Source of the DNA: an uncultured bacterium
GTDB lineage: Bacteria > Patescibacteriota > Minisyncoccia > Phycocordibacterales > GWA1-40-21
DNA length: 64,000 bases
NCBI GenBank assembly: GCA_903822075.1
Contig: CAIJNK010000021.1
Location: 13,112-77,111 of the forward strand
Reading direction: 5' to 3'
Part shown: positions 22,378-62,740 of the stretch, piece by piece
Layout: every line of letters begins with the position of its first letter
Position numbering within the stretch: the first letter of the stretch is position 1
Translations under genes and position numbers: made by a program
The notes under the pieces: generated by a model
What the model was told of the DNA's origin: nothing
What the model saw: the letters and a program-made list of their open reading frames with translations, nothing else
Database searches by the model: none

Positions 22378-23583
22378 TTACATTGCGCCGGAAATATTGT
22401 AAATAGGGATAAGAACGGAAGCCAGAAGGAAGGCTACGCCAAAACCCAAAAAGACGATCATTACCGGCTCAATTAAAGCCACGAGTGTATCAATGGCAGT
22501 AATAACCTCTCGGCGATAGAACAAGGCCAGAGTTTTTAAAATATTCCCCAACTGGCCAGTTTCTTCTCCAATCTTGATCATGGCGACAAATATACCCGGT
22601 ATTTCACCAGACTTCATCATGGCATCAGAAATAGAGCTGCCGGATTTTACGTCCTCCATGGCTTGAAGCAAAACTTCCTCAAATATTTTATTATCCACCA
22701 CCTTGGAAGTCAGCTCCAGACCCCGGACAATTGGGATTCCGGACATAAGCATTACATTCATATTGTCGGCAATTCTCGAAAGATACAGTTTACGATATAG
22801 GATCTGCACTATTGGAGTAGATATTTTTAATTGGTCAAAGGCTCGGCCACCAGCTTCAGTACGAATATAGCGCCAAAGGAAAAAACCACCAACAATCACT
22901 AGGATAAGCAGGAAGATTCCATAATCAACAAAAAACTTTGAGAGATTGATAATTATTTGGGTATAAATCGGCAAGCCTTGCCCTGCATCAGTTAAAATAG
23001 CACCAATTTTAGGAATAACAACAGTCAACATCAAGACCATCACGACAATAAAAGTAAAAATAATGAAGGCCGGATAGAACAAAGCGCCCTTAACCTTGGA
23101 AGTTACCTCATGTGTTCGGTCCAAATAATCTGCCAAATAGAGCAAGGTTTGATCCAGTTTTCCTGATTCCTCGCCAGATTTAACCATATTGACGTAAAAA
23201 TCTGAGAATAAAACCGGGTGTTTAGCTAAGGCTTCCGAGATAGTGTTACCGGCTTGTAGGTCGGTGGCAATCTCATTAAGCTCTCTTCTCATTATAGGTT
23301 TTTCCGACTGACTAGCCAAAAGCTCAAACACTCTCAAGGCGGATACTTGGGCCTCAAAGAGAGTGGACATCTGTCTTGACAACACCACTAAATCTTTACT
23401 GGAGACTTTTTCAAAAAAGGAGATTCTTTTTTCAAAAAAAGATCCTTCCTCCAACGGATCAATACTGGAGAGGACCAAACCTCTCTTTTGCAAAGAATTT
23501 ATCGCGACTTCCAAACTGACGGCCTCAATGGTGCCTTCCTTCTGATTTGCCGATTGATCTATCGCCTTATATTTAAAAATCAT
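22378..23583 (-). CDS. pilC: Type IV pilus assembly platform protein PilC (GspF family).
   Basis: 401 aa, two GspF repeats with 3 TM segments, between pilT and the pilin genes. Confidence 0.85.
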   Translation of the reverse strand: MIFKYKAIDQSANQKEGTIEAVSLEVAINSLQKRGLVLSSIDPLEEGSFFEKRISFFEKVSSKDLVVLSRQMSTLFEAQVSALRVFELLASQSEKPIMRRELNEIATDLQAGNTISEALAKHPVLFSDFYVNMVKSGEESGKLDQTLLYLADYLDRTHEVTSKVKGALFYPAFIIFTFIVVMVLMLTVVIPKIGAILTDAGQGLPIYTQIIINLSKFFVDYGIFLLILVIVGGFFLWRYIRTEAGGRAFDQLKISTPIVQILYRKLYLSRIADNMNVMLMSGIPIVRGLELTSKVVDNKIFEEVLLQAMEDVKSGSSISDAMMKSGEIPGIFVAMIKIGEETGQLGNILKTLALFYRREVITAIDTLVALIEPVMIVFLGFGVAFLLASVLIPIYNISGAM

Positions 23584-23588
23584 GTTTT

Positions 23589-24650
23589 TTACAATAACCT
23601 TTCGAGACTCTTTGGATTGAAGGAAAAATGATAAGCGTTTTCAATGGTAATTTCACCTCTAGACACCAAATCGGCCAAACAACGGTTCATATCCACCATT
23701 CCCTCTTGCGAACTGGTCTCAATCACCGTATTTATTTCGTGCGTCCTCTTCTCTCTAATTAAATTTGAGACTGCACTGTTATTTATCAATAACTCATAGG
23801 CTGGGACAAGGCCACCCGATATTCTCGGGACCAGGCGTTGAGAAAAAATCCCATTCAAGCTGTTTGATAACTGATTACGAATCTGATCCTGTTGATTACC
23901 CGGAAAGGAATCGATGATTCTATCAATAGTCTGCGCGGCACTATTTGTATGAAGAGTAGAGAAAACTAAGTGCCCAGTCTCGCCAGCAGTAACGGCAGTG
24001 GAAATAGTTTCCAGCCCGCGCATTTCGCCAATCAAAACTACGTCCACGTCTTCTCGAAACATACTGCGTAAAGCGTTTGGAAAATCGACAGTGTCAATCC
24101 GTACTTCCCTCTGGTCAATCACCGATCGTTTCTGCTCATAAAGATATTCGATAGGATCTTCAATTGTTAAGATATGTTCGGCTCGGGTGGAATTAACATA
24201 ATCGATCATCGAAGCTAGAGTGGTACTCTTGCCGTGACCAACCGGACCGACAACGAGAAAAAAACCCTGCTGTTTTTCCGCAAAAGTCTTCAAGATGTCG
24301 GGTAGATTAAGTTCTTCAATTGTCCTTATCTTCTTTGGCACCAAGCGAAGAGCGATCGAAATAGCCCCCTGCTGAAAATAAGCGTTGCCTCGAAAACGAA
24401 AATCTTCAAAGCCGTAGGAGAAATCTATTTCTTTGGTGCTGTTAAAAATTTCCATGTTCTTTTCAGATAAAAGAAGATTCAAGAAGCCGGCCGTATCTTC
24501 TTTGGTCAAAACTGTGTGTTTAATCAAAGGCAAAAGCATACCGGATATTCTAATTGTCGGATGTCTTCCTTCTGACATATGAAGATCTGACGCTCCTTCA
24601 TTGACCACCGACCTCATCAGATCTTTTAAAACTGTGTTATAATCCGTCAT
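23589..24650 (-). CDS. pilT: Type IV pilus retraction ATPase PilT.
   Basis: Walker A GPVGHGKSTT, Asp box and His box of the PilT/GspE superfamily, 353 aa, no N-terminal GspE-N domain. Confidence 0.8.
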   Translation of the reverse strand: MTDYNTVLKDLMRSVVNEGASDLHMSEGRHPTIRISGMLLPLIKHTVLTKEDTAGFLNLLLSEKNMEIFNSTKEIDFSYGFEDFRFRGNAYFQQGAISIALRLVPKKIRTIEELNLPDILKTFAEKQQGFFLVVGPVGHGKSTTLASMIDYVNSTRAEHILTIEDPIEYLYEQKRSVIDQREVRIDTVDFPNALRSMFREDVDVVLIGEMRGLETISTAVTAGETGHLVFSTLHTNSAAQTIDRIIDSFPGNQQDQIRNQLSNSLNGIFSQRLVPRISGGLVPAYELLINNSAVSNLIREKRTHEINTVIETSSQEGMVDMNRCLADLVSRGEITIENAYHFSFNPKSLERLL

Positions 24651-24654
24651 ATTT

Positions 24655-25062
24655 TTATTGCTTAACCTCAGTCTTTTTTTGCAAATTATAAATCCTCTCT
24701 ACTTCTTCCACTACCTCAGAAGGAATAGTGGTGGCCTTGATTATATAACCGTTGATACCAAAGCTCTTAGCTTTTTCAATATCCGCCAATTGACCTTGGT
24801 TGGTCAGCATAATAATCATTGCATTCGGAACAAGGTTGTTCTTTTTAAGATTATCCAATATTTCAAAACCGTCCATTCCCGGCATAACAATATCCAGTAA
24901 GACTATATCCGGGGCATAACCTTCTTTGATCTTGCCTAAAGCTTCTTCACCAGATGAAGCAGAATTTACTTCAAAACCATTCTTGCTGAATTTTATAGAA
25001 TACATGTTCAACAGAAACTTATCGTCATCAATAATCAAAACTTTTGGTAATTTATTTTCCAT
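24655..25062 (-). CDS. Response-regulator receiver domain (PilH/CheY-like) inside the pilus operon.
   Basis: KVLIIDDD..DIVLLDIVMPGMDGFEIL..K, 135 aa, no output domain. Confidence 0.75.
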   Translation of the reverse strand: MENKLPKVLIIDDDKFLLNMYSIKFSKNGFEVNSASSGEEALGKIKEGYAPDIVLLDIVMPGMDGFEILDNLKKNNLVPNAMIIMLTNQGQLADIEKAKSFGINGYIIKATTIPSEVVEEVERIYNLQKKTEVKQ

Positions 25063-25101
25063 GGAAATATTATATCATAATAAAAAACTAATAAATACAA
25101 C

Positions 25102-26841
25102 CTAAACGTCTTCTTCCATCATACCCAAGGTGTCTATCTCGCCAAAAGGAACCTGTTTGTTTAACGCTTTGACAATAGCATCTTCTTTCATAACAAGCAT
25201 TCCTCGATTCCTGAGAGAATCATAAATACTCGTCTCAGTTGGATTTGTCAAAATAATCTTTTCAATTTCCTTGTTCATTTTAAAGGCCTCGAAGACAGCT
25301 ATACGGCCTTTGGTTCCGGTCGGACACTCCGGTGTTGATTCCGGCTCATAGACAAATTCAAATTTTGGTAGCTTGTTTTTATATTCTTCCGGTAGATCTC
25401 TGAATTGCTTATCAAACAAAGCCTTGATACTGCCCTCCACCGGTACCGGTTTCCCTGTGCCAGGATAAAGGGTTCGGATCAAACGTTGAGCCATAGTCAA
25501 AATAAGGGTCGGGGCAATCAAATAGGGATCCACCCCCATGTCAATAAGCCTTGGAATCACCCCCACGGCATTGTTAGTATGGATTGTTGCCAAAACCAAG
25601 TGACCGGTCAAAGCGGCTTGAATGGCCAATTGGGCTGTTTCCTTATCACGGATTTCTCCCACCATGATCACGTCTGGGTCCTGACGTAGGGTAGTTCTCA
25701 AACCGGTCGCAAATGTATAACCAATGTCGGGAAAAATCTGCGACTGAGAAACACCATCTATATTATATTCAATTGGGTCTTCCAAAGAGAGAACGTTCAG
25801 ACCCTCCTTATCTATTTCTTGAAGCATGGAATACATGGTGGTGGTTTTTCCGGAACCAGTCGGACCGGAAATCAGAATCATACCGTATGGTCGTTTAATG
25901 GCGTCACGAATATAGGCTAGGTTTGTATCCGACAGACCGATTTTATCCAAAGTCTGAATCCCTTTTTCTTGGTCCAAAATTCTCATCACGATTTTCTCGC
26001 CATAATAGGCGGGAAAAGTCGAGACACGAAAGTCAATTTTTCGACCGTCAATCTTAGCGGAAAAACGCCCGTCTTGCGGTTTTCTTTTTTCATCCAGCTT
26101 CATATTGGACAGGATTTTTATCCTAGCGATAACCGCCGAGTGTACGGCCACCGGTAAGAAGAGGCTGGTATTCAAGACCCCATCAACTCGGAATCTCACT
26201 CGAATTTTGTCTTTCATGTGTTCAATGTGGATATCTGAAGCTTCTCCTTCCGTCGCATAACGCAAGATAGTTGCAACAATTTTTGTTACCGGCGCATCCT
26301 CGACTATTTTTGTTTCCAGTGGATCCTCGTGAGAAGCATTCGAACTGATTTCTACGTTATCCACATCGTCCGATAACTCTGTCTCTAATTCGGTTAAAGC
26401 CTTAGTCACCTCGCCAGATAAACCCTTATAATCATCCATCACCTTTTCAAAGTCTGACATGGTAATCAAATAAAGCTTAAAGGGCATATTGATCTTGCTG
26501 GCAATAAAGTTCAGAGCATCCCGAGCGTCAATATTCTCGGGGTCAACAATACCCACTTCAAGTAAACCTTCTTTAATACCGATCGGGACAAAACTGTAAT
26601 GCATAGCGGAATCTTCTGAAATATTTTTCAGGATAGAAAAAGGTATCTGTTTACCTTCCAGATTTCTAGTGGGAATATTATAATACTCGCCTTTAGCATC
26701 CAAAATAGCGTCTTCATTGACTCCTCTTTTGATTAGAATTTGCTCCAAAGAAACTCCGGCGGACTCAGCCTCTGTTTTGATTCGGCCTACATCCCCTCGG
26801 TTAATTATCTCCTTTTGGGCTAATATGTCTAATATACTCAT
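25102..26841 (-). CDS. pilB: Type IV pilus assembly ATPase PilB (GspE family).
   Basis: N-terminal GspE-N domain, Walker A GPTGSGKTTT, 579 aa. Confidence 0.85.
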   Translation of the reverse strand: MSILDILAQKEIINRGDVGRIKTEAESAGVSLEQILIKRGVNEDAILDAKGEYYNIPTRNLEGKQIPFSILKNISEDSAMHYSFVPIGIKEGLLEVGIVDPENIDARDALNFIASKINMPFKLYLITMSDFEKVMDDYKGLSGEVTKALTELETELSDDVDNVEISSNASHEDPLETKIVEDAPVTKIVATILRYATEGEASDIHIEHMKDKIRVRFRVDGVLNTSLFLPVAVHSAVIARIKILSNMKLDEKRKPQDGRFSAKIDGRKIDFRVSTFPAYYGEKIVMRILDQEKGIQTLDKIGLSDTNLAYIRDAIKRPYGMILISGPTGSGKTTTMYSMLQEIDKEGLNVLSLEDPIEYNIDGVSQSQIFPDIGYTFATGLRTTLRQDPDVIMVGEIRDKETAQLAIQAALTGHLVLATIHTNNAVGVIPRLIDMGVDPYLIAPTLILTMAQRLIRTLYPGTGKPVPVEGSIKALFDKQFRDLPEEYKNKLPKFEFVYEPESTPECPTGTKGRIAVFEAFKMNKEIEKIILTNPTETSIYDSLRNRGMLVMKEDAIVKALNKQVPFGEIDTLGMMEEDV

Positions 26842-26858
26842 ATGAAATTTCTCAAAAA

Positions 26859-27212
26859 CTACTTAGCCTTGCTGGTGCTGGTACTTTTAGGAGCGACAAC
26901 GGCGGAATTTTCTATACCGATCGGTAGAAAAGGGTTCTTACGCCCGGCCACCTGAGTATCCAGACCTCGTTCAAAACTTTTAAGACTAACAAAAACTTTA
27001 TCCGAAAAGACCGAATCATCCAAAGTTACTGAGTTCAATTGATCTAACATTGCCAAAATAACTTGTCCATCGGCAAACTGAACGGGAGTGCCGGTATCGG
27101 CGACTAAGGCCACATCTACTGAATCTTTATTGGGAAAAAATATTTTATAGGCGACAAAAATAACGGCGATTATGACAATGGCGATTATTATTTGTTTGGT
27201 ATTTTTAGCCAT
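26859..27212 (-). CDS. Small membrane-anchored protein in the pilus operon (possibly PilP-like).
   Basis: Single N-terminal TM helix, 117 aa. Function assigned by position only. Confidence 0.35.
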   Translation of the reverse strand: MAKNTKQIIIAIVIIAVIFVAYKIFFPNKDSVDVALVADTGTPVQFADGQVILAMLDQLNSVTLDDSVFSDKVFVSLKSFERGLDTQVAGRKNPFLPIGIENSAVVAPKSTSTSKAK

Positions 27213-27224
27213 GATTTTAATAAT

Positions 27225-27788
27225 TTATTTTAACCAATAAGTTTTCAGACCGACGGAAAAATCATACAAACCGGTGTTATTCCCAGAAACCGACAGATCG
27301 GTAATTTCAACCAAACGTAAACTCTTCTCTAGATCTGCGAGAAAATCTTGAAACTTTTCATAAGTGGCACTGACTGAAAAAGAGATTCCGACCGTCCCAT
27401 ACTTACTGGTATCAGCACCTAATTTATTCGGGTCGATCTTGGCGTTAGTATCCAATCGCGCTCCCTTTAAAGTGAGATTATGCTGATTGGCAATATTCGT
27501 CATATCAATGATTAACTTGATATTATCAATATTATCGGGCAGGAGTTTGTTTAATCTTTCAAGATTATCTGAACTGAAAGAGTCTTTCTTGGTTTCTAGG
27601 GCCTGCTTTTTATCTTTGATTGCCCCGGTGTTATTCAGAGCTTTTTGATACTGTTCATCCTCTGTTTGTAAGTTTTTAATACTCGCAGCGCCGTAGCTAA
27701 CCGCGTCTCCACGATAAACAGGATCGGTATACATAAAAAATGTCCCGATAGAGATTATTATTAGAATGATTGGGGTTATGATATTCAT
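27225..27788 (-). CDS. pilO: PilO-like pilus assembly protein.
   Basis: N-terminal TM helix plus coiled-coil/periplasmic domain, 187 aa. Synteny pilM-pilN-pilO. Confidence 0.55.
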   Translation of the reverse strand: MNIITPIILIIISIGTFFMYTDPVYRGDAVSYGAASIKNLQTEDEQYQKALNNTGAIKDKKQALETKKDSFSSDNLERLNKLLPDNIDNIKLIIDMTNIANQHNLTLKGARLDTNAKIDPNKLGADTSKYGTVGISFSVSATYEKFQDFLADLEKSLRLVEITDLSVSGNNTGLYDFSVGLKTYWLK

Positions 27789-27799
27789 ATTTTTAATGA

Positions 27800-28450
27800 T
27801 TATAGCGTTGGAGTGGTGGTGGCTGTAGTGGTGGCCTCTGGAGCGCTAGGAAAATTTTGACCGTTGGCAACGCTTTCACCGTAAGTAACCAACTTGGAAT
27901 CGATTAGAGCGCTAAAATTAAAAGACACCGTGCCATCCGGATTAAGATTAAAATCAGACACCACCGGTTGTGAAATAAATCCACTTAAATCATCTTTACC
28001 GAAGGCATCGGACTGCCTGGACAAAGCGTCATAGTTCTTGGCAATGCCCGCTAAATCAATCTTGATATTATCGACGCCACCATAAGAAAATTTAAAACTT
28101 TTTAACTGAACGTTTTGGACTATTTTTTTCTGTAACAGGACAAAGACTGGAGTGACGGCTAAATGCTGACTTAACAGACTCTTTGTTTGCTCTATTCGGT
28201 CATTTAAGCGCAACAAAGGTTCAATAGTGGCCTCATCATAATTATCTTTTTCCGCCACCAGAGCCGCCTTGTCTTTATCTACTTGTGCAACCAAAGATGT
28301 ACGCCACAACCAAACAAAACCAGCTAGGGCTAGAGAAGTAATAAAAAGAATAATAGAAAGGAGTAAAAATAAGCTAATACTGGAACCTCCAATACGGCCG
28401 GCGGTTACCGGTTTTTTGGGTATAAAAGATGTTTGCATTTTTACTTCCAT
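27800..28450 (-). CDS. pilN: PilN-like pilus assembly protein.
   Basis: N-terminal TM helix, 216 aa, immediately downstream of pilM. Confidence 0.55.
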   Translation of the reverse strand: MEVKMQTSFIPKKPVTAGRIGGSSISLFLLLSIILFITSLALAGFVWLWRTSLVAQVDKDKAALVAEKDNYDEATIEPLLRLNDRIEQTKSLLSQHLAVTPVFVLLQKKIVQNVQLKSFKFSYGGVDNIKIDLAGIAKNYDALSRQSDAFGKDDLSGFISQPVVSDFNLNPDGTVSFNFSALIDSKLVTYGESVANGQNFPSAPEATTTATTTPTL

Positions 28451-28501
28451 ATTCTTGCACTATTATAATACTAATCAAAAATAAAAGCTATCAACAACAA
28501 G

Positions 28502-29626
28502 TTATCCCATGTCCTGCAGACGTCTGAGGGCCAGACCAATGGCCACAGCAAAGGATGGCCCGGCCTGCTTCAAGACATTTTCAAGAAAAGCGGGATACTC
28601 GAGCTTCGAAAACGGATCGGCCAAGGCAACTGGCACACTGAAGCTGGCTTCAGCCTTTTCTCGGAGACCCTTGAGCAATACCCCGCCACCGGTCAGGAAT
28701 ATTTTGCTGATGTTTCGCCCAGTCTTCTTTTGGTAATTCAGGAGAACCCGGCTTATTTCAGAAAAAATATAATCCAAAGTCAGTGAAGTAATCTCGTTAA
28801 TATCCATCGATTCATTTTCTTTTTTCAAAAGTCCTCTTTCTCTTTTTATTTTTTCCGCCTCCTCCACTTTAATACCCAAAGATTTGGAAATAGCCAGAGT
28901 AATATCTTGCGAACCGCGACTAATCATATGCGAGGTGCGCAAGATCCCTTTTTCAATGATGTAAACTTTGGTCGAACCAGAACCAAAGTCAATTATCATC
29001 TGCGGTGCCGTACCCGGCTCCAAGACCGAACGCATGGAACTAAATATTTCTATCTCAGAAAATTGAGTATCAAGTTTGGCAATTTGCGTAATTTCTTTAT
29101 TCTTGGCCATCGCATCATTATGAATGACCACGAGAAGAACGTCGATTGTTTTGTCATCCGGTTTCTCCTCGCTATTTTGATATTCAGAAACAATATTTTC
29201 GTTTCTTGGAATAACCAAGTAATCCAGACTAACTTCGGAAATAGGCACCGGAATATATTTTCTGGCCTCGAGCGGAATCATCTGGGCGAGCTGCTTGGGG
29301 TCCGTTTTGGGCAACTTAATAAAGGAGACCAAACTTGACCCCATGGGAATGGAGATTCCACATTTATTAGTGGTAACATTTGATTCACGCAAAACATCCA
29401 CCACCGCTTGAGCGGTTTGTTCGGTCGTTAGGTTAGTAGCCCGACCAATTTCTACGCCGGCATAAGGACCAAGGGACAATTCGCCGTAGGTTTCAAGTAT
29501 AGCCCTTCCTTTCCTCCTTTTTAACTGGACAACCTTGATGGAAGACGGGCCAATATCAATACCCAGGACACTTTTATTGTTGTCGCTTTGAAAAGCGCTT
29601 TTGAAAAAATTAACTATATCAATCAT
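28502..29626 (-). CDS. pilM: Type IV pilus assembly protein PilM (actin-like ATPase fold).
   Basis: GIDIGPSSIKVVQL phosphate-1 motif. FtsA/PilM-like layout, 374 aa. Confidence 0.75.
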   Translation of the reverse strand: MIDIVNFFKSAFQSDNNKSVLGIDIGPSSIKVVQLKRRKGRAILETYGELSLGPYAGVEIGRATNLTTEQTAQAVVDVLRESNVTTNKCGISIPMGSSLVSFIKLPKTDPKQLAQMIPLEARKYIPVPISEVSLDYLVIPRNENIVSEYQNSEEKPDDKTIDVLLVVIHNDAMAKNKEITQIAKLDTQFSEIEIFSSMRSVLEPGTAPQMIIDFGSGSTKVYIIEKGILRTSHMISRGSQDITLAISKSLGIKVEEAEKIKRERGLLKKENESMDINEITSLTLDYIFSEISRVLLNYQKKTGRNISKIFLTGGGVLLKGLREKAEASFSVPVALADPFSKLEYPAFLENVLKQAGPSFAVAIGLALRRLQDMG

Positions 29627-38056: not shown

Positions 38057-38445
38057 AAATCAAGAAGATTCCGCGTTGGGCAAATATTGTGTTTTTCAAA
38101 GGACCGAAAGGTTTTGCTTTGGGTGACACGGTCTATTTGTCCGACCACTATCACAACCAGTTCATAGCTAGCAAGCCTTCACTTGAAACGGAGGCCCTGA
38201 TTGCTCACGAGTCAGAACATTTGGAAAGGCTCCGGAAGTTTGGGCGGTTCAGTCTCGTCAAATACTTTCTGAGTCGAAACTTCCGATTACAGGAGGAAAT
38301 TGCCGCTACCAAAGCAGAGATGGCTGTACTCAAAAAAGGCGGGCAAGTTTTTGATTATGTTGGACGAGCCAGTAGCTGGTCTTCAATCAACTATCTCTTC
38401 ATGGTCAGCTATGAAGAGGCGTATCGGATTCTTGTCGGCCTCTAG
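38053..38445 (+). CDS. Hypothetical protein with an HExxH motif (HESEH), possible small metallopeptidase-like protein.
   Basis: ATGA start/stop overlap with the upstream gene. AHESEHLERL. Confidence 0.35.
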   Translation: MKIKKIPRWANIVFFKGPKGFALGDTVYLSDHYHNQFIASKPSLETEALIAHESEHLERLRKFGRFSLVKYFLSRNFRLQEEIAATKAEMAVLKKGGQVFDYVGRASSWSSINYLFMVSYEEAYRILVGL

Positions 38446-38475
38446 ACCCCACTTCGGTGGGGTTTATTTATTTTT
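38446..38475 (+). terminator. Intrinsic terminator: 7-bp GC stem with TTCG tetraloop and T-run.
   Basis: ACCCCAC-TTCG-GTGGGGT followed by TTATTTATTTTT. Confidence 0.65.
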
Positions 38476-38490
38476 ATAATTCATCCTCTA

Positions 38491-39195
38491 TTATTCAATC
38501 TTGTCTGACTTCTGAAGATTATGCTTTGCGCATAATAGTTTTACGTTATTTGCAGACAAACTTGTACCACCCTTAGAAAAAGGTAAGTCATGATCAAAAT
38601 GTAAATTATTTGAGTCGCCGCATAAGACACACTTACCCTGATCTCTTTTCCAAACTTCTCTCTTGACCAATGAAGGAATGAGCCTTGTGTGTTCAACTTG
38701 AATATTGGTAGAACGATTTTCTTTTCTATCTGATAGTTTTAGAATATACCTAAATACATTTCTTTTACCGTCATTAACAACCTTGAAATTTACCAGGTCA
38801 AAATAACCTTTCAAGGACCACACTCCGGGAAGAACTTTTTCATATACTTTTACCAATTCAGGCACACCACCATTTTTCACAAACTCCGCAGCAGACTTAA
38901 TAAACAAACCATTTTGGGTTAATCTACCACTTGGCAGTTTATCTGGTTGATCTTCATTCTTAGGATTATGCTCGTACGATTTTTTTAAAACATCATGTCC
39001 TTCATACTCAATTGTTATACCGTCATCATAGACTTTATCAGAATATGGCGCATTCGATCTTTGAGACATCAATATGACTGAATAAGCAGGATTCATCCTA
39101 AAGTTCATCCCTCTTTGCATCGTTTGAGAGTTTTCGGCATCACACATCTCCCTATAACTTAAAATATCGTCCTGAATTTTTAAAAGATTATTCAT
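38491..39195 (-). CDS. SRA(YDG)-HNH endonuclease, putative modification-dependent (type IV) restriction enzyme.
   Basis: N-terminal VYDDGITIEYEG .. FRYILKL resembles the SRA/YDG fold. C-terminal CVLCG..HFDHDLPFSKGG..NNVKLLCAKHN is an HNH motif. Confidence 0.55.
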   Translation of the reverse strand: MNNLLKIQDDILSYREMCDAENSQTMQRGMNFRMNPAYSVILMSQRSNAPYSDKVYDDGITIEYEGHDVLKKSYEHNPKNEDQPDKLPSGRLTQNGLFIKSAAEFVKNGGVPELVKVYEKVLPGVWSLKGYFDLVNFKVVNDGKRNVFRYILKLSDRKENRSTNIQVEHTRLIPSLVKREVWKRDQGKCVLCGDSNNLHFDHDLPFSKGGTSLSANNVKLLCAKHNLQKSDKIE

Positions 39196-39201
39196 CCAAT
39201 T

Positions 39202-41214
39202 TTATTCAATAATTCTCTCCACAACCCCCTGCACGATGCCCTGTATTGTGTCTCCTTCGTTCATAATGATATCTTTGTGATCTGAATTAAACGAACGTGG
39301 CTTAAGAGTAATTCCTTCTTTTGTCCTTAAATATTCCTTAATTGTCACATTCCCATCAACTAGAGCGACAACTCTATCACCATCATGTGCTGTCTCCTTT
39401 TTCCAGCACAAGACTAGGTCACCTTCTTTTATTCCAGCTTTATTCATTGAATCGCCTCTTGCTCTTACAATAAAATAATTCAAATCCCTCCTAATTATTT
39501 TCTTTGGTACCAAAATCTCTTCCTCAATATCCTCTTGCACATCAGTCGGCGAACCACACTGAATTGAGCCCAGTAATGGCACACGAATCATAACCCCAGT
39601 ATATGGTGATATTATTTTTTGTCTTTTACTTATAACTGATTTTGTATCCCGCTGCAAGTTACTTTTAAAATATTTTCTAAGTTTTTCATCTACAACATAA
39701 ATATATGTACCTCTTATTCCCCTAGTCAATAAAGTCTTATAAATATTAATAATATATCTTTTTAATTCTTCTGGGTCAGTTATACCCCGCCAACCATTCG
39801 CGTCCATATAATTATCAGCATTGATAACTAACTTATTTTCTTTTTCATTGTAGGAAAGTTCCGGTCCTATAATCACGCCTACATAGTTTAAGTCGTAACC
39901 TTGAACAGTATGAATACAACCCACTTCATTGACTGCATTTTTTGAATTAACCCAGTCCTGATTTGTCTCATTCCAGGTCATTTTTAGACCATCAATTTCT
40001 ATATCATGGATATTAGGATTTCTCCTGCTTCTCCATTCCCATGCATAACCCGCTACCATTCTGCATAATCCAAACTCTATATCTTTTTTCTTGATATCGG
40101 AAACCATTTTATGAATGTCATCATATAAATTCAAATCATAACCAGAAAATATAGTATTTTTTATCTCCTTTAGGTCAAACAAATTATCAACAAAGGAAAT
40201 GTACTCTTCGCCAGCAATAACCCTTTGTTGGTTGACTAAATCATATCGTATAGCATTTAAATCATTAAATTTTTTGAAATTTATGTCTGCCGGTCTGACA
40301 CTTTGATTTTTATCATAAAAAAATATCTGGTGCTTTGATGATTTTAATATCCAATCTAATTCAGTCCCTTCATTACCTAATGCGAATTTTCTATTTGTCT
40401 TATCGAATGACTGATAGTTAGTAATATTCCGCCTTTGTTTTAGACGGTGAGCTTCATCTACTATTAAAATATCATACCTTTTCTTAGTCACGTCATTTGG
40501 GCCAATCACCATTGAGGACTTCAAGTCCTTAACCTTTGAGAGCACTCGACGTATTGTTCGTCGTAACGAAGTCATAGGTACCACTAAACCCACCTCAAGA
40601 TTTTTAGTCTCATCTTTCTCTTTTAAAAATTTGACCAAATACACAGCAAGGATAGTTTTGCCTGTCCCAGGTTTTCCATTTATGATATAAGACCCTTCTT
40701 TATCTTTTAGTATATTCTGAAATATATCATCAGCTACAACCATTTGATCTTCCGTTAAGGATTTATAAGGTGAATATTTAAAAAGATCACTGTTTCTTAT
40801 CTGTACAAGATCTTTTTTTACCAACTCCTTCTTTTGCAAATCTTTCCAAATAATTTCAAATTTAGCTTTATACTTTTCCTTATCGTAATAATTATGATTC
40901 CTAAGACCGTCATTACCATTTTGTAAAACAAAAGATCCTTCAGCTGACATATACTGGATTAACCAAGATTCAATATCTAGCGTCGCAGATTTATTATATT
41001 CTTCATCTGTAATTACATGAATATTTTTTAGCCCTTTTCTGTCTGGATTATCCAAATGCTGTTTACTTCTGCTTATAAGGCTCGTGGTCTCACCAATATA
41101 GACCTCCCTGCCGTTTTCAAGCACGTAAACAACTGGCCAATTTTTACCAAATTCATACTGTTTAATTTTTTCAAAATCTACTCTATCAAATTTAAATGTT
41201 TTGATATCAGCCAT
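39202..41214 (-). CDS. GIY-YIG nuclease + DUF2075/Schlafen-like P-loop ATPase fused to a C-terminal LexA/UmuD-like S24 autopeptidase domain.
   Basis: VYVLENGREVYIGET..R..E (GIY-YIG). Walker A GKPGTGKT. YKTLLTRGIRGTYIYVVD (DUF2075 C-terminal signature). C-terminus VPLLGSIQCGSP..RGDSMNKAGIKEGD..VTIKEY aligns to the LexA/UmuD catalytic domain with a Cys-Gly cleavage site, Ser and Lys. Confidence 0.6.
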   Translation of the reverse strand: MADIKTFKFDRVDFEKIKQYEFGKNWPVVYVLENGREVYIGETTSLISRSKQHLDNPDRKGLKNIHVITDEEYNKSATLDIESWLIQYMSAEGSFVLQNGNDGLRNHNYYDKEKYKAKFEIIWKDLQKKELVKKDLVQIRNSDLFKYSPYKSLTEDQMVVADDIFQNILKDKEGSYIINGKPGTGKTILAVYLVKFLKEKDETKNLEVGLVVPMTSLRRTIRRVLSKVKDLKSSMVIGPNDVTKKRYDILIVDEAHRLKQRRNITNYQSFDKTNRKFALGNEGTELDWILKSSKHQIFFYDKNQSVRPADINFKKFNDLNAIRYDLVNQQRVIAGEEYISFVDNLFDLKEIKNTIFSGYDLNLYDDIHKMVSDIKKKDIEFGLCRMVAGYAWEWRSRRNPNIHDIEIDGLKMTWNETNQDWVNSKNAVNEVGCIHTVQGYDLNYVGVIIGPELSYNEKENKLVINADNYMDANGWRGITDPEELKRYIINIYKTLLTRGIRGTYIYVVDEKLRKYFKSNLQRDTKSVISKRQKIISPYTGVMIRVPLLGSIQCGSPTDVQEDIEEEILVPKKIIRRDLNYFIVRARGDSMNKAGIKEGDLVLCWKKETAHDGDRVVALVDGNVTIKEYLRTKEGITLKPRSFNSDHKDIIMNEGDTIQGIVQGVVERIIE

Positions 41215-41217
41215 TTT

Positions 41218-41565
41218 TTAAAGTTTATTATATTTCGTATGCTTTCCCTTAGCCTTTTCCACAGAATATTTTTCTTCATTTTTCTTCATTTTTTTCTCAA
41301 AAGATTTAATAACATCAATTTTCAAATCGTGACTCATTAATAATATCCAGTACAAAGTATCTGCAAGCTCCTCGCCGATTTCATCCTTATGTTCAATAAC
41401 ATATTTATCCATTTCTTCCTTATTCTTCCACTGAAAATGCTCCATCACCTCCCCAGCTTCCAAGACAAGGGAAATAGCTAAGTCTTTGGGATTATGAAAC
41501 TGCTGCCAATCGCGAGCGTCTCGAAAAGCCACAATTCTTTTGGTCAATTCTGCCAAAGTTTTCAT
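41218..41565 (-). CDS. MazG-like all-alpha NTP pyrophosphohydrolase domain protein.
   Basis: EAGEVMEHFQWK .. EELADTLYWILL MazG motifs. Start taken at MKTLAEL (41565). The ORF-track GTG start (41589) reads through the promoter box. Confidence 0.6.
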   Translation of the reverse strand: MKTLAELTKRIVAFRDARDWQQFHNPKDLAISLVLEAGEVMEHFQWKNKEEMDKYVIEHKDEIGEELADTLYWILLMSHDLKIDVIKSFEKKMKKNEEKYSVEKAKGKHTKYNKL

Positions 41566-41572
41566 AGAATAA

Positions 41573-41581
41573 ATGGTAGCA
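41573..41581 (-). promoter_or_regulatory. -10-like box TGCTACCAT (TGTGCTA-prefixed) 7 nt upstream of the MazG-like ATG.
   Basis: Minus-strand reading TTTTGTGCTACCATTTATTCTATG. Confidence 0.3.
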
Positions 41582-41644
41582 CAAAACACCCCTCAAAACC
41601 ACCGTTATTTGAGCCGTCTGAGCGAGTTGCGACTTATGTGCGGA

Positions 41645-50792: not shown

Positions 50793-52019
50793 CTATAAAA
50801 ATAATAAATTCCGGTCCAAATCATCAGTTTGCGTACCTTTTTCCTTATGTTTCAAAGCCTGATGGGTGGAGGCCAGATAGACCAACCGTTTACCAAATTT
50901 TTCTTCCAGCGAATCTATTTGTTTATGGACCAATTCAAACTTGTCCGCCTTGGCTTTCCCGCCAAACAAATCACCCTGAACCGCGTAGTTAGAAATGAGC
51001 TCCTGCAAAGTCACGCCGGTAGTTCGGTAAAGAATCCCACGCCGGTGCATCTCAGGAAATTTATTTTCCGCCAAAGCGGTGATGATTTCGGGAGCGTTGG
51101 TGGGCGAAGAAAGCTTTACGGCGCAAATGTAATATTTGAAATCCTGCGCTTTAAGAAAAAAGGAGACTTTTTTGGGTACCAAATCATAATGTCGAGCTTT
51201 AGCACAAGCCTCCTCGATATTTTTTGATAACTGAGACAGGAGAAAAGTCGGGTTATTTGTTAGCGGATGAAAAGTGCGCGTTTTCTGAATAGAAGAGTAG
51301 ACGGTTTTTGGCACCGGATCTATCTTGAATAAATATTCGCCCCGAAGCTCCCGCCAAAGCTCTTCGTAAGGCTTGGCTAAATTATTTTTGACCCAGGCCA
51401 GATCCTTATTTATAAAATCCCCGGCCAGCCGGATATTTCTTCTTTGCAAAAATTCCGCTGTTTTGGGACCAATACCCCAAACTTTTTCCACGGGGATTTT
51501 CCGTAAAAAATCCAGGGCTGTTTCTTTTTTAATTACGGTCAGACCGTTAGGTTTCACCCATTTTGAAGCCACTTTGGCTAAAACTTTGGTTGGCGCCAAA
51601 CCGATCGAAATGGAAAGATGAAGTTCTTCATTTATTTCTTTTTTGATCCTTTCCGCTATCTGTAAATATGAGAGTTTGAGCGGCCGGTCCAAGCCGGTAA
51701 GATCGGCAAAACATTCATCGATACTATACTCCTCCACTTCGTCCGCGTATCGGCGCACGATGTCAAACATCAAGGCGGAATAACGGGAGTAGGCAGCATA
51801 ATCACCAGGTAAGATTATCACTTGTGGAAAATCTTTTTGCACTCGAAAAATGGGCATGCCACGGACAATACCAATAGCTTTGGCTTCATAGGACAAGGCA
51901 GAAACTATTCCCCGTTCCTCGCCAGTCACCACGGGCCGGCCTTTGAGCTTGGGATTTTTAGCCGTTTCCACGCCCACAAAAAAAGCATCACCGTCCATGT
52001 GTAAAATAACTTTTTCCAT
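50793..52019 (-). CDS. dinB: DNA polymerase IV (Y-family, DinB).
   Basis: ILHMDGDAFFVGVE (matches IIHVDMDCFFAAVE), palm/fingers/little-finger layout, 408 aa. Confidence 0.85.
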   Translation of the reverse strand: MEKVILHMDGDAFFVGVETAKNPKLKGRPVVTGEERGIVSALSYEAKAIGIVRGMPIFRVQKDFPQVIILPGDYAAYSRYSALMFDIVRRYADEVEEYSIDECFADLTGLDRPLKLSYLQIAERIKKEINEELHLSISIGLAPTKVLAKVASKWVKPNGLTVIKKETALDFLRKIPVEKVWGIGPKTAEFLQRRNIRLAGDFINKDLAWVKNNLAKPYEELWRELRGEYLFKIDPVPKTVYSSIQKTRTFHPLTNNPTFLLSQLSKNIEEACAKARHYDLVPKKVSFFLKAQDFKYYICAVKLSSPTNAPEIITALAENKFPEMHRRGILYRTTGVTLQELISNYAVQGDLFGGKAKADKFELVHKQIDSLEEKFGKRLVYLASTHQALKHKEKGTQTDDLDRNLLFL

Positions 52020-62204: not shown

Positions 62205-62628
62205 GGGGATGATCGGCCTAGACATCTGATCTGTCCTTGATTGCGCAAAGTGGTGCATTATTATACACACCTAAAATGTTAATAAACAAACAACTGCTAA
62301 TAGCATTGTTTCAAGAGTAAAGTCTGTTGTGTCCCCATATTTTGCGGCCAACTCCTTTGCTTTCGCTTACGTAGCTTAATCTTACGATTAACGCCTAAGC
62401 GGCATCCATCTTGTCCATATCTAATAAACAAGCGTGGGTGACATAAAATTAGATTATATTGCCAGAATGTCTCGACTGGTGATGAAATAAGGGGCTAGGT
62501 TAATAATCATTTTGTTAATTCTAAAATTATTAACTCAACTCTGCTTCACGGCAGAAATAAATTGACTAAACTTTGTAGAAGCAATTAGGATACTCTTATG
62601 CACGCGGGTTCGATTCCCGCCATCTCCA
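62205..62628 (+). ncRNA. ssrA: tmRNA (ssrA), ~424 nt. Candidate tag reading frame GCG GCC AAC TCC TTT GCT TTC GCT TAC GTA GCT TAA (..ANSFAFAYVA*).
   Basis: 5' GGGGATGATCGGCC pairs with 3' CATCTCC. 3' tRNA-like end GCACGCGGGTTCGATTCCCGCCATCTCCA matches the tmRNA T-arm/acceptor consensus. Directly downstream of smpB. Confidence 0.75.
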
Positions 62629-62740
62629 CATTTCAAAAATCCGCTCGCCTTCCCAGGTGGGCGATTTTTGTTACCTAAAAATAGTTGATTTTATCTTAAA
62701 AATATATAGACTGTATTCAGACAACAAAGGAGGCATCGAT

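Follow-up and report, generated by a model that had tools for sequence, protein, structure and literature searches.

What is encoded by the last gene of a low-GC, three-gene islet in the genome of an uncultured member of the Patescibacteriota, and does that gene act alone or with its neighbours? The gene occupies positions 38491..39195 of a 64,000-nucleotide stretch of contig CAIJNK010000021.1 (GenBank assembly GCA_903822075.1, positions 13,112 to 77,111), the whole of which is referred to here as the window. An original prediction, made from the sequence of this open reading frame (ORF), had proposed an SRA-HNH protein acting as a modification-dependent (type IV) restriction endonuclease. Our analysis leads to the same answer, and we put the probability that the gene encodes a modification-dependent SRA-HNH restriction nuclease at about three in four. 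The product is probably a small two-domain enzyme, in which a reader, presumably of 5-methylcytosine (5mC) or 5-hydroxymethylcytosine (5hmC), is fused to an HNH nuclease, and its family belongs to a known class of anti-phage restriction enzymes, of which it is an uncharacterised branch.

Domain architecture

Two protein alignments underpin the domain assignments: a shallow alignment of 25 close homologues (A1) and an alignment of 31 diverse family members (A2). Residue conservation was counted over 52 full-length representatives sharing 34-75% identity with the query. Features of the gene and its product are as follows.

38491..39195, minus strand: SRA-HNH ORF, 234 amino acids (aa) plus stop codon, uninterrupted, with an ATG start (from the ORF list and sequence)
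38731..39168, minus strand: SRA (SAD/SRA, PUA-like) modified-base reader domain, approximately aa 10-155
38992..39045, minus strand: putative flipped-base pocket segment, Y51-S-D53 ... Y64-E-G66-H67-D68, aligned with 'GGYND...IYTG' of SUVH5
38680..38730, minus strand: variable low-confidence linker, aa 156-172, the least conserved block of A1 and A2
38494..38679, minus strand: HNH (beta-beta-alpha-Me) nuclease domain, aa 173-234, with putative zinc ligands C189, C192, C222 and H225 and putative active-site residues D201-H202, N217 and N226

All of the motifs on which the original prediction relied were located in the protein: YDDG (aa 56-59), Y.G (aa 64-66), FRYILKL (aa 148-154), CxxC (aa 189-192), HFDHDLPFSKGG (aa 199-210) and N..LC.KHN (aa 217-226). 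Searched alone against Pfam, the query gave a weak HNH match (E=9e-4, under the gathering score) and a marginal SAD_SRA match (E=0.095, aa 15-83); PADLOC and NCBIfam scans returned the HNH module only, and a phmmer search of the PDB reached only the HNH domains of IscB and Cas9-like proteins. As these single-sequence matches were weak or confined to HNH, family-level evidence was needed for the SRA assignment.

That evidence came from the diverse alignment. A shallow profile recovered only HNH domains from the PDB, and an SRA structure was reached by the diverse profile alone: the A2 profile matched the crystal structure of the SUVH5 SRA domain (3q0b, E=0.003, profile positions 22-149), pairing 'apYaD' with 'GGYND', 'iYeG' with 'IYTG', 'DQ' with 'DQ' and 'vfkFkL' with 'VFKFKL'. 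When the 31 members of A2 were scanned singly against Pfam, 24 matched HNH, 16 matched SAD_SRA (best E=1.5e-7) and two matched PF18491 (SRA). The SRA/HNH signal of the family is far above chance.

An AlphaFold2 model built from A2 reached a mean predicted local distance difference test score (pLDDT) of 89.1 and a predicted template modelling score of 0.77, with pLDDT falling below 50 only at aa 162-167, within the linker; a model built from A1 reached a pLDDT of just 47 and was not used. In a Foldseek search of the PDB, ScoMcrA ranked first, with an alignment of around 300 columns covering both SRA and HNH domains (E=2e-6), followed by the SRA domain of SUVH5 (TM-score 0.70, target-normalised), KRYPTONITE, SUVH6, MspJI and UHRF1/2. 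These matches identify the N-terminal domain as an SRA fold rather than some other fold. In keeping with its proposed SRA-like character, FRYILKL aligns with the last SRA beta-strand of SUVH5 ('FKFKLRR'). The rest of the suggested SRA signature survived only in part: Y.G (Y64-G66) lies within the pocket motif, but YDDG is no signature, as Y56 is replaced by histidine or tryptophan even among homologues 71-90% identical to the query.

Two pocket motifs are conserved, A-P-Y51-x-D53 and Y64-E-G66-H67-D68. Among the 52 representatives, position 51 is tyrosine in 40 and phenylalanine in four, position 53 is aspartate in 42 and glutamate in two, and Y64 is present in 45. Other positions in the domain are similarly constrained (G66 in 47, H67 in 46, D82 in 43, Q83 in 46, N95 in 48, and W126 and G130 in 50 each), and A2 displays a series of conserved N-terminal blocks: LQRGMNF, SVxLMS, APYxD, YEGHD, DQP, LTxNGxF, VYEK, GxW...G and RxVFKFxL. 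On alignment, the two putative aromatic walls (Y51, Y64) and the carboxylate (D53) match the Y, Y and D of the SRA domain of SUVH5, a reader of 5mC and 5hmC represented among the Foldseek matches by PDB entries 3q0b-f and 4ygi. H67 and D68 stand where UHRF1 has T-G-S after the second aromatic. In TagI, the pocket is walled by Tyr55 and Tyr67, together with Asp58 (Kisiala et al., 2018); Y51, D53 and Y64 are the aligned equivalents of Y55, D58 and Y67, with SUVH5-like Y-x-D spacing.

The nuclease domain is equally well conserved. C189, C192 and C222 are each present in 49 of the 52 representatives, and position 225 is histidine in 34 and cysteine in 12, an alternation that a metal ligand would show and from which we assign position 225 to the zinc site. 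The resulting CxxC...CxxH arrangement is a known variant in enzymes of the TagI/ScoA3IV type. The catalytic histidine and asparagine of the original prediction are present on alignment: D201-H202, N217 and N226 (conserved in 41, 40, 42 and 38 representatives, respectively) match the D-H, N and N of Gme HNH (4h9d), with H202 and N217 also shared with IscB, so that the active site is, by alignment, of the D-H...N...N type. In the model, H202 is predicted to end the first beta-strand (199-202), which is followed by a second strand (218-221) and a helix (223-228) to give the beta-beta-alpha unit. Structural matches to the HNH domain included EcoKMcrA (score 7.8), GVE2 HNH (7.4), ZRANB3, Cap5, Gme HNH and IscB. 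Some distant relatives in A2 (P0166, P0167, P0170, P0173, P0184, P0197 and P0257) retain SRA and the CxxC motif while having lost D-H; these may be inactivated nucleases or pure readers.

Comparison with characterised enzymes

An N-terminal SRA domain followed by a C-terminal zinc-containing HNH domain is also the plan of TagI, ScoA3IV (Sco5333), TbiR51I and MsiJI. Enzymes of the TagI/ScoA3IV type further resemble the query in a pocket of two aromatics and a carboxylate and in having no cognate methyltransferase nearby. They differ from it in several respects. The query, at 234 aa, is shorter than TagI (285-286 residues), and its carboxylate falls at Y+2 rather than at Y+3 as in TagI. The query has an acidic residue before the catalytic histidine (D201-H202), like Cas9, IscB and Gme HNH, whereas neither TagI nor ScoA3IV has one; both rely on a downstream aspartate, TagI presenting A228-H229 with Asp258. 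The last active-site residue is asparagine (N226) instead of histidine, and the clade of the query is found mostly in Patescibacteria, in contrast to the GC-rich Actinobacteria and Proteobacteria that host the TagI/ScoA3IV type. TagI (6ghs) and ScoMcrA (5zmm) were absent from the results of three phmmer/hmmsearch searches of the PDB at E<=10. Going by sequence, the family has the same architecture as TagI/ScoA3IV but is a separate clade, not the same family in the narrow sense.

The kinship with TagI, ScoMcrA and PvuRts1I that had been suggested for the protein thus holds for the architecture and fold of the first two and not for their sequences, while PvuRts1I is a relative in fold only. ScoMcrA (SBD-SRA-HNH) is about twice as long and carries an extra N-terminal sulfur-binding domain for phosphorothioate DNA, which the query lacks. 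PvuRts1I and AbaSI place a Vsr-like nuclease at the N-terminus and an SRA-like domain at the C-terminus, so that the query, with the reverse order and an HNH nuclease, is not a member of that group; nor does it belong with MspJI, LpnPI and AspBHI, in which an N-terminal SRA-like domain precedes a C-terminal PD-(D/E)XK nuclease rather than HNH. In the eukaryotic proteins SUVH5, KRYPTONITE and UHRF1, the SRA domain recruits chromatin modifiers, whereas in the query it is fused to a nuclease.

Family size, distribution and horizontal spread

A word-indexed search yielded 4,456 homologous clusters at 90% identity, the best 120 being 71-100% identical to the query. Most are unnamed and nearly all lack a precomputed Pfam match; the few with names ('HNH endonuclease', 'Restriction endonuclease' or 'hypothetical protein') come from Patescibacteria. 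When 50%-identity representatives were searched exhaustively, 9,494 matched at E<=1e-3 and 92 of them at E<=1e-30, with full-length relatives at 34-53% identity among the matches. This large, highly conserved and compact SRA-HNH branch, known publicly only by generic names, is now identified; enzymes of such small size might serve as reagents to map 5mC and 5hmC.

Relatives were found in 543 species-representative genomes from many phyla, mostly Patescibacteria, a group whose defence repertoire is poorly known; the best 80 loci share 63-79% identity with the query. Carriers outside the Patescibacteria include two complete chromosomes, one from the Acidobacteriota and one from the Omnitrophota, as well as large contigs of Proteobacteria and a few short contigs from archaeal bins. 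For analyses of context, SRA-HNH loci were gathered with the A1 alignment and 80 species genomes were analysed. The GC content of the gene ranges from 0.28 to 0.52 and tracks that of the host (r=0.74), though it falls short of host GC in GC-rich hosts, and protein identity holds at around 70%; this combination points to a gene that spread horizontally and then resided in its hosts under strong purifying selection. No SRA-HNH relative was found in the viral contigs searched, and annotated phages and plasmids contained no full-length relative, only the HNH module (aa 170-233). Within the searchable library, no paper joined SRA-HNH enzymes with Patescibacteria.

The islet and its partner genes

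The gene lies in a compact cluster bounded by housekeeping genes.

38446..41600, no strand: low-GC islet of three genes between housekeeping genes (GC 0.34; remainder of the window 0.43)
39202..41214, minus strand: GIY-YIG/DUF2075/S24 'Nhi-like' helicase, 670 aa (from Pfam, PADLOC and LexA/UmuD structures)
41218..41589, minus strand: MazG-like pyrophosphatase, homologue of DCTPP1/RS21-C6 (Pfam MazG-like, E=1.4e-13)
38443..38466, no strand: GC-rich hairpin between convergent genes at their shared end of the islet, terminator-like on the plus strand (from a terminator scan and sequence)

All three genes are on the minus strand, separated by gaps of 3 and 6 nt; SRA-HNH is the last, starting 6 nt past the stop codon of the helicase ORF. 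Flanking genes encode a P-type ATPase, YgjP-like, Bax1-I, His_Phos_1 (histidine phosphatase) and SelR/MsrB proteins. A terminator-like hairpin of the upstream gene sits just before the islet, and the hairpin at 38443..38466 may terminate the minus-strand operon as well. None of the neighbouring genes showed a methyltransferase domain, and the methyltransferase motifs PCQ (C5) and (D/N/S)PP(Y/F/W) (N4/N6) were absent from ORFs of >=120 aa across the 64-kb window. Lone enzymes of this kind, with no adjacent methyltransferase, have been reported among PUA-type modification-dependent enzymes (Lutz et al., 2019).

The helicase protein begins with a GIY-YIG-like segment (VYVLE...VYIGET, aa 29-43), continues with a DUF2075/SLFN-g3 core (aa 176-509, E=6e-68; Walker A GKPGTGKT at 180) and matches the PADLOC models Nhi (E=3.5e-16), AbiO and PDC-S14. 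At its C-terminus is a LexA/UmuD-like Peptidase_S24 domain (aa 546-660; window 39235..39579), with a UmuD-like QCG cleavage-site motif (aa 552-554) and intact serine (GDSM, aa 587-590) and lysine (TIKEY, aa 624-628) motifs; such a tag on a defence helicase suggests self-cleavage triggered by RecA or DNA damage. The order of an N-terminal nuclease followed by DUF2075 is that described for Nhi and Nhi-like single-gene defence by Millman et al.; unlike Nhi, the helicase has a GIY-YIG-like nuclease, an appended S24 domain with QCG and a near-constant DCTPP1-like upstream partner. That partner, the MazG-like protein, matches an archaeal pyrophosphatase (4qgp, E=3.6e-19) and dCTP pyrophosphatase 1/RS21-C6 (E=4e-16) in the PDB and no PADLOC model. 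Its annotated start (GTG, 41589) is probably wrong, the likely start being the ATG at 41565, which gives a protein of 115 aa, as in homologues.

In a set of 51 metagenome loci anchored on the helicase (around 30 with downstream sequence), a MazG-like gene lies directly upstream in nearly all loci with upstream sequence; the two genes form a tight unit. The slot that follows this pair varies across loci L089-L131, where motif inspection alone indicated DUF262/ParB-like, OLD-like ATPase, DUF3800-like, RhuM-like, methyltransferase or SRA-HNH genes; it looks like a variable cargo position. DUF2075 NTPases have been noted beside other modification-dependent enzymes (Lutz et al., 2019). In the searchable literature, we found no description of the MazG/DUF2075 pairing, of a GIY-YIG nuclease with DUF2075 or of an S24-tagged DUF2075 (S24-Schlafen) protein.

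Autonomous enzyme or three-gene system

Linkage was assessed from both sides. Among the 80 SRA-HNH-anchored loci, a DUF2075 helicase and/or a MazG-like gene is present in 24, and the helicase lies directly upstream in 18 of the 62 loci with >=3 kb of upstream sequence; roughly 70% of the 80 have neither partner within 6 kb. At least three helicase subtypes serve as partners, and the linked genes are spread across the SRA-HNH tree (18 state changes, compared with 21.6 for shuffled labels), so the association has been made repeatedly. From the other side, SRA-HNH lies downstream of the helicase in only two of the around 30 helicase-anchored loci with downstream sequence, the slot being otherwise filled by unrelated defence-like genes. 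The trio is present at about 29% of related loci, and most SRA-HNH copies stand alone. Constant co-occurrence of all three genes therefore fails, and only the MazG-like/helicase pair is constant. SRA-HNH is probably an autonomous module that has repeatedly landed beside the MazG-like/helicase unit, cooperation with which is possible but not required. From the recurrent adjacency to a DCTPP1-like gene and an S24-tagged Nhi-like helicase, it seems that modified-base sensing, cleaning of the dNTP pool and DNA-damage signalling may be linked.

Neighbours of SRA-HNH in other genomes include HEPN_AbiU2, Fic and ASCH genes and a restriction-modification-like pair. In five loci among L008-L087, a DNA methyltransferase with an SPPY motif and a 264-aa protein precede SRA-HNH (in L087, at 81-854 and 857-1651); the two are likely to be a Type II restriction-modification pair. 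SRA-HNH beside such a pair would have to tolerate its methylation.

Proposed mechanism and alternative explanations

If the gene encodes a modification-dependent nuclease, the SRA domain would act on incoming DNA, flipping out a cytosine modified at position 5 (5mC and/or 5hmC) and into a pocket between Y51 and Y64, where D53 would read its Watson-Crick edge. The zinc-stabilised HNH domain would then nick or cut the DNA nearby, H202 probably acting as general base, D201 and N226 probably binding the metal and N217 playing a structural part; by analogy with TagI, the enzyme is probably a dimer. We presume that the host has no cytosine-5 methylation in those contexts that the enzyme senses. The gene reached its host by horizontal transfer and stands in a small defence islet, downstream of genes for a DCTPP1-like pyrophosphatase and an Nhi-like nuclease-helicase, with which it may cooperate. 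There is precedent for such an activity: TagI, ScoA3IV, MsiJI and related enzymes cut DNA containing 5mC or 5hmC and are toxic in Dcm+ E. coli.

Several points weigh against this interpretation, which draws on sequence, predicted structure and context. The query's own Pfam scores fall under the gathering thresholds, neither TagI nor ScoMcrA could be matched by sequence even at the permissive E-value used, and the D-H motif has been lost in some distant relatives. The pocket match comes from alignment and places the carboxylate at Y+2, as in SUVH5, rather than at Y+3, as in TagI and UHRF1. The methyltransferase screen covered 64 kb of the host genome and simple motifs, and an SPPY-type methyltransferase stands two genes away in five related loci.

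The nearest competitor, though an unlikely one, is that SRA-HNH is not autonomous but an obligate part, whether sensor or effector, of a system of three genes that also encodes the MazG/DCTPP1-like and GIY-YIG-DUF2075-S24 proteins. The shared strand, short gaps and low GC of the islet speak for it, as do recurrence of the trio in unrelated flanking contexts, the upstream helicases of at least three subtypes and the scatter of linked genes over the tree. It is countered by the majority of SRA-HNH genes that lack both partners, by the near-absence of SRA-HNH from the helicase's variable downstream slot and by the fact that characterised SRA-HNH enzymes work alone; the helicase-anchored loci rule it out as the leading explanation. 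Slightly less probable still is a pocket that reads some other base (glucosylated or hypermodified cytosine, N4-methylcytosine, modified thymine or a damaged base) or an enzyme with little dependence on modification. SRA-like specificity has diverged elsewhere, PvuRts1I and AbaSI for example accepting glucosyl-5hmC; no characterised enzyme is close to the clade in sequence, H67 and D68 are conserved after the second aromatic, and Sco5333 with Mg2+ cut methylated and unmethylated DNA alike. What tells against this option is the conservation of two aromatics and a cytosine-edge carboxylate in alignment with SUVH5, itself a 5mC/5hmC reader.

A selfish, homing or phage-derived HNH endonuclease, spreading by its own mobility and with no role in defence, would account for the presence of relatives at 63-79% identity (best 80 loci) within a set of 543 species genomes from many phyla, for gene GC below host GC in high-GC hosts and for the resemblance of the HNH module to phage HNH families. 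We nevertheless consider it very improbable, given that viral contigs yielded no relative and annotated phages and plasmids no full-length one, that there is no intron, intein or target-gene context and that gene GC tracks host GC at around 70% protein identity, which implies long residence and purifying selection. To our knowledge, the SRA reader domain has no role in homing.

Preferring the autonomous modification-dependent nuclease, we regard its SRA-HNH identification as solid but expected biology; a cassette hypothesis offers modest upside. It is doubtful, though conceivable, that the three genes work together as a cassette against phages whose DNA carries modified cytosine. In such a cassette, the DCTPP1-like MazG protein would hydrolyse phage-made 5-modified dCTP, SRA-HNH would cut DNA already containing modified cytosine, RecA-bound breaks would trigger S24 self-cleavage of the helicase at C553-G554, and the GIY-YIG-DUF2075 nuclease-helicase would be freed as a second, damage-gated effector. 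If true, a Type IV enzyme, nucleotide-pool control and an SOS-like proteolytic switch would be combined in a single operon.

Other features of the window

The pilus that had been placed in the same genome is indeed encoded in the window, as a type IV pilus cluster at ~22.4-29.6 kb.

22378..29626, minus strand: type IV pilus cluster comprising PilC/T2SSF, PilT-like and PilB-like T2SSE, and PilM
50793..52019, minus strand: Y-family (DinB-like) DNA polymerase gene
62205..62629, plus strand: transfer-messenger RNA (tmRNA) gene

A 24-nt direct repeat (83% identity; 38476-38499 and 39187-39210) exactly brackets SRA-HNH; it is made up of 'ATTGAATAA' (I-E-stop) and 'GGATGAAT' with a spacer between them. 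After the SRA-HNH stop codon comes a mini-ORF of six codons. We considered and rejected the repeat as an insertion scar: its junctions are not conserved in other loci and both proteins end in I-E-stop, so it is probably due to chance. In another Patescibacteria genome (L002/L003, the context of P0101), an ASCH-domain gene, ASCH being another PUA-like reader of modified bases, directly follows SRA-HNH. A few kb downstream come YgjP-like and P-type ATPase genes, just as they do in the window; the likeness suggests a shared chromosomal hotspot with different cargo.

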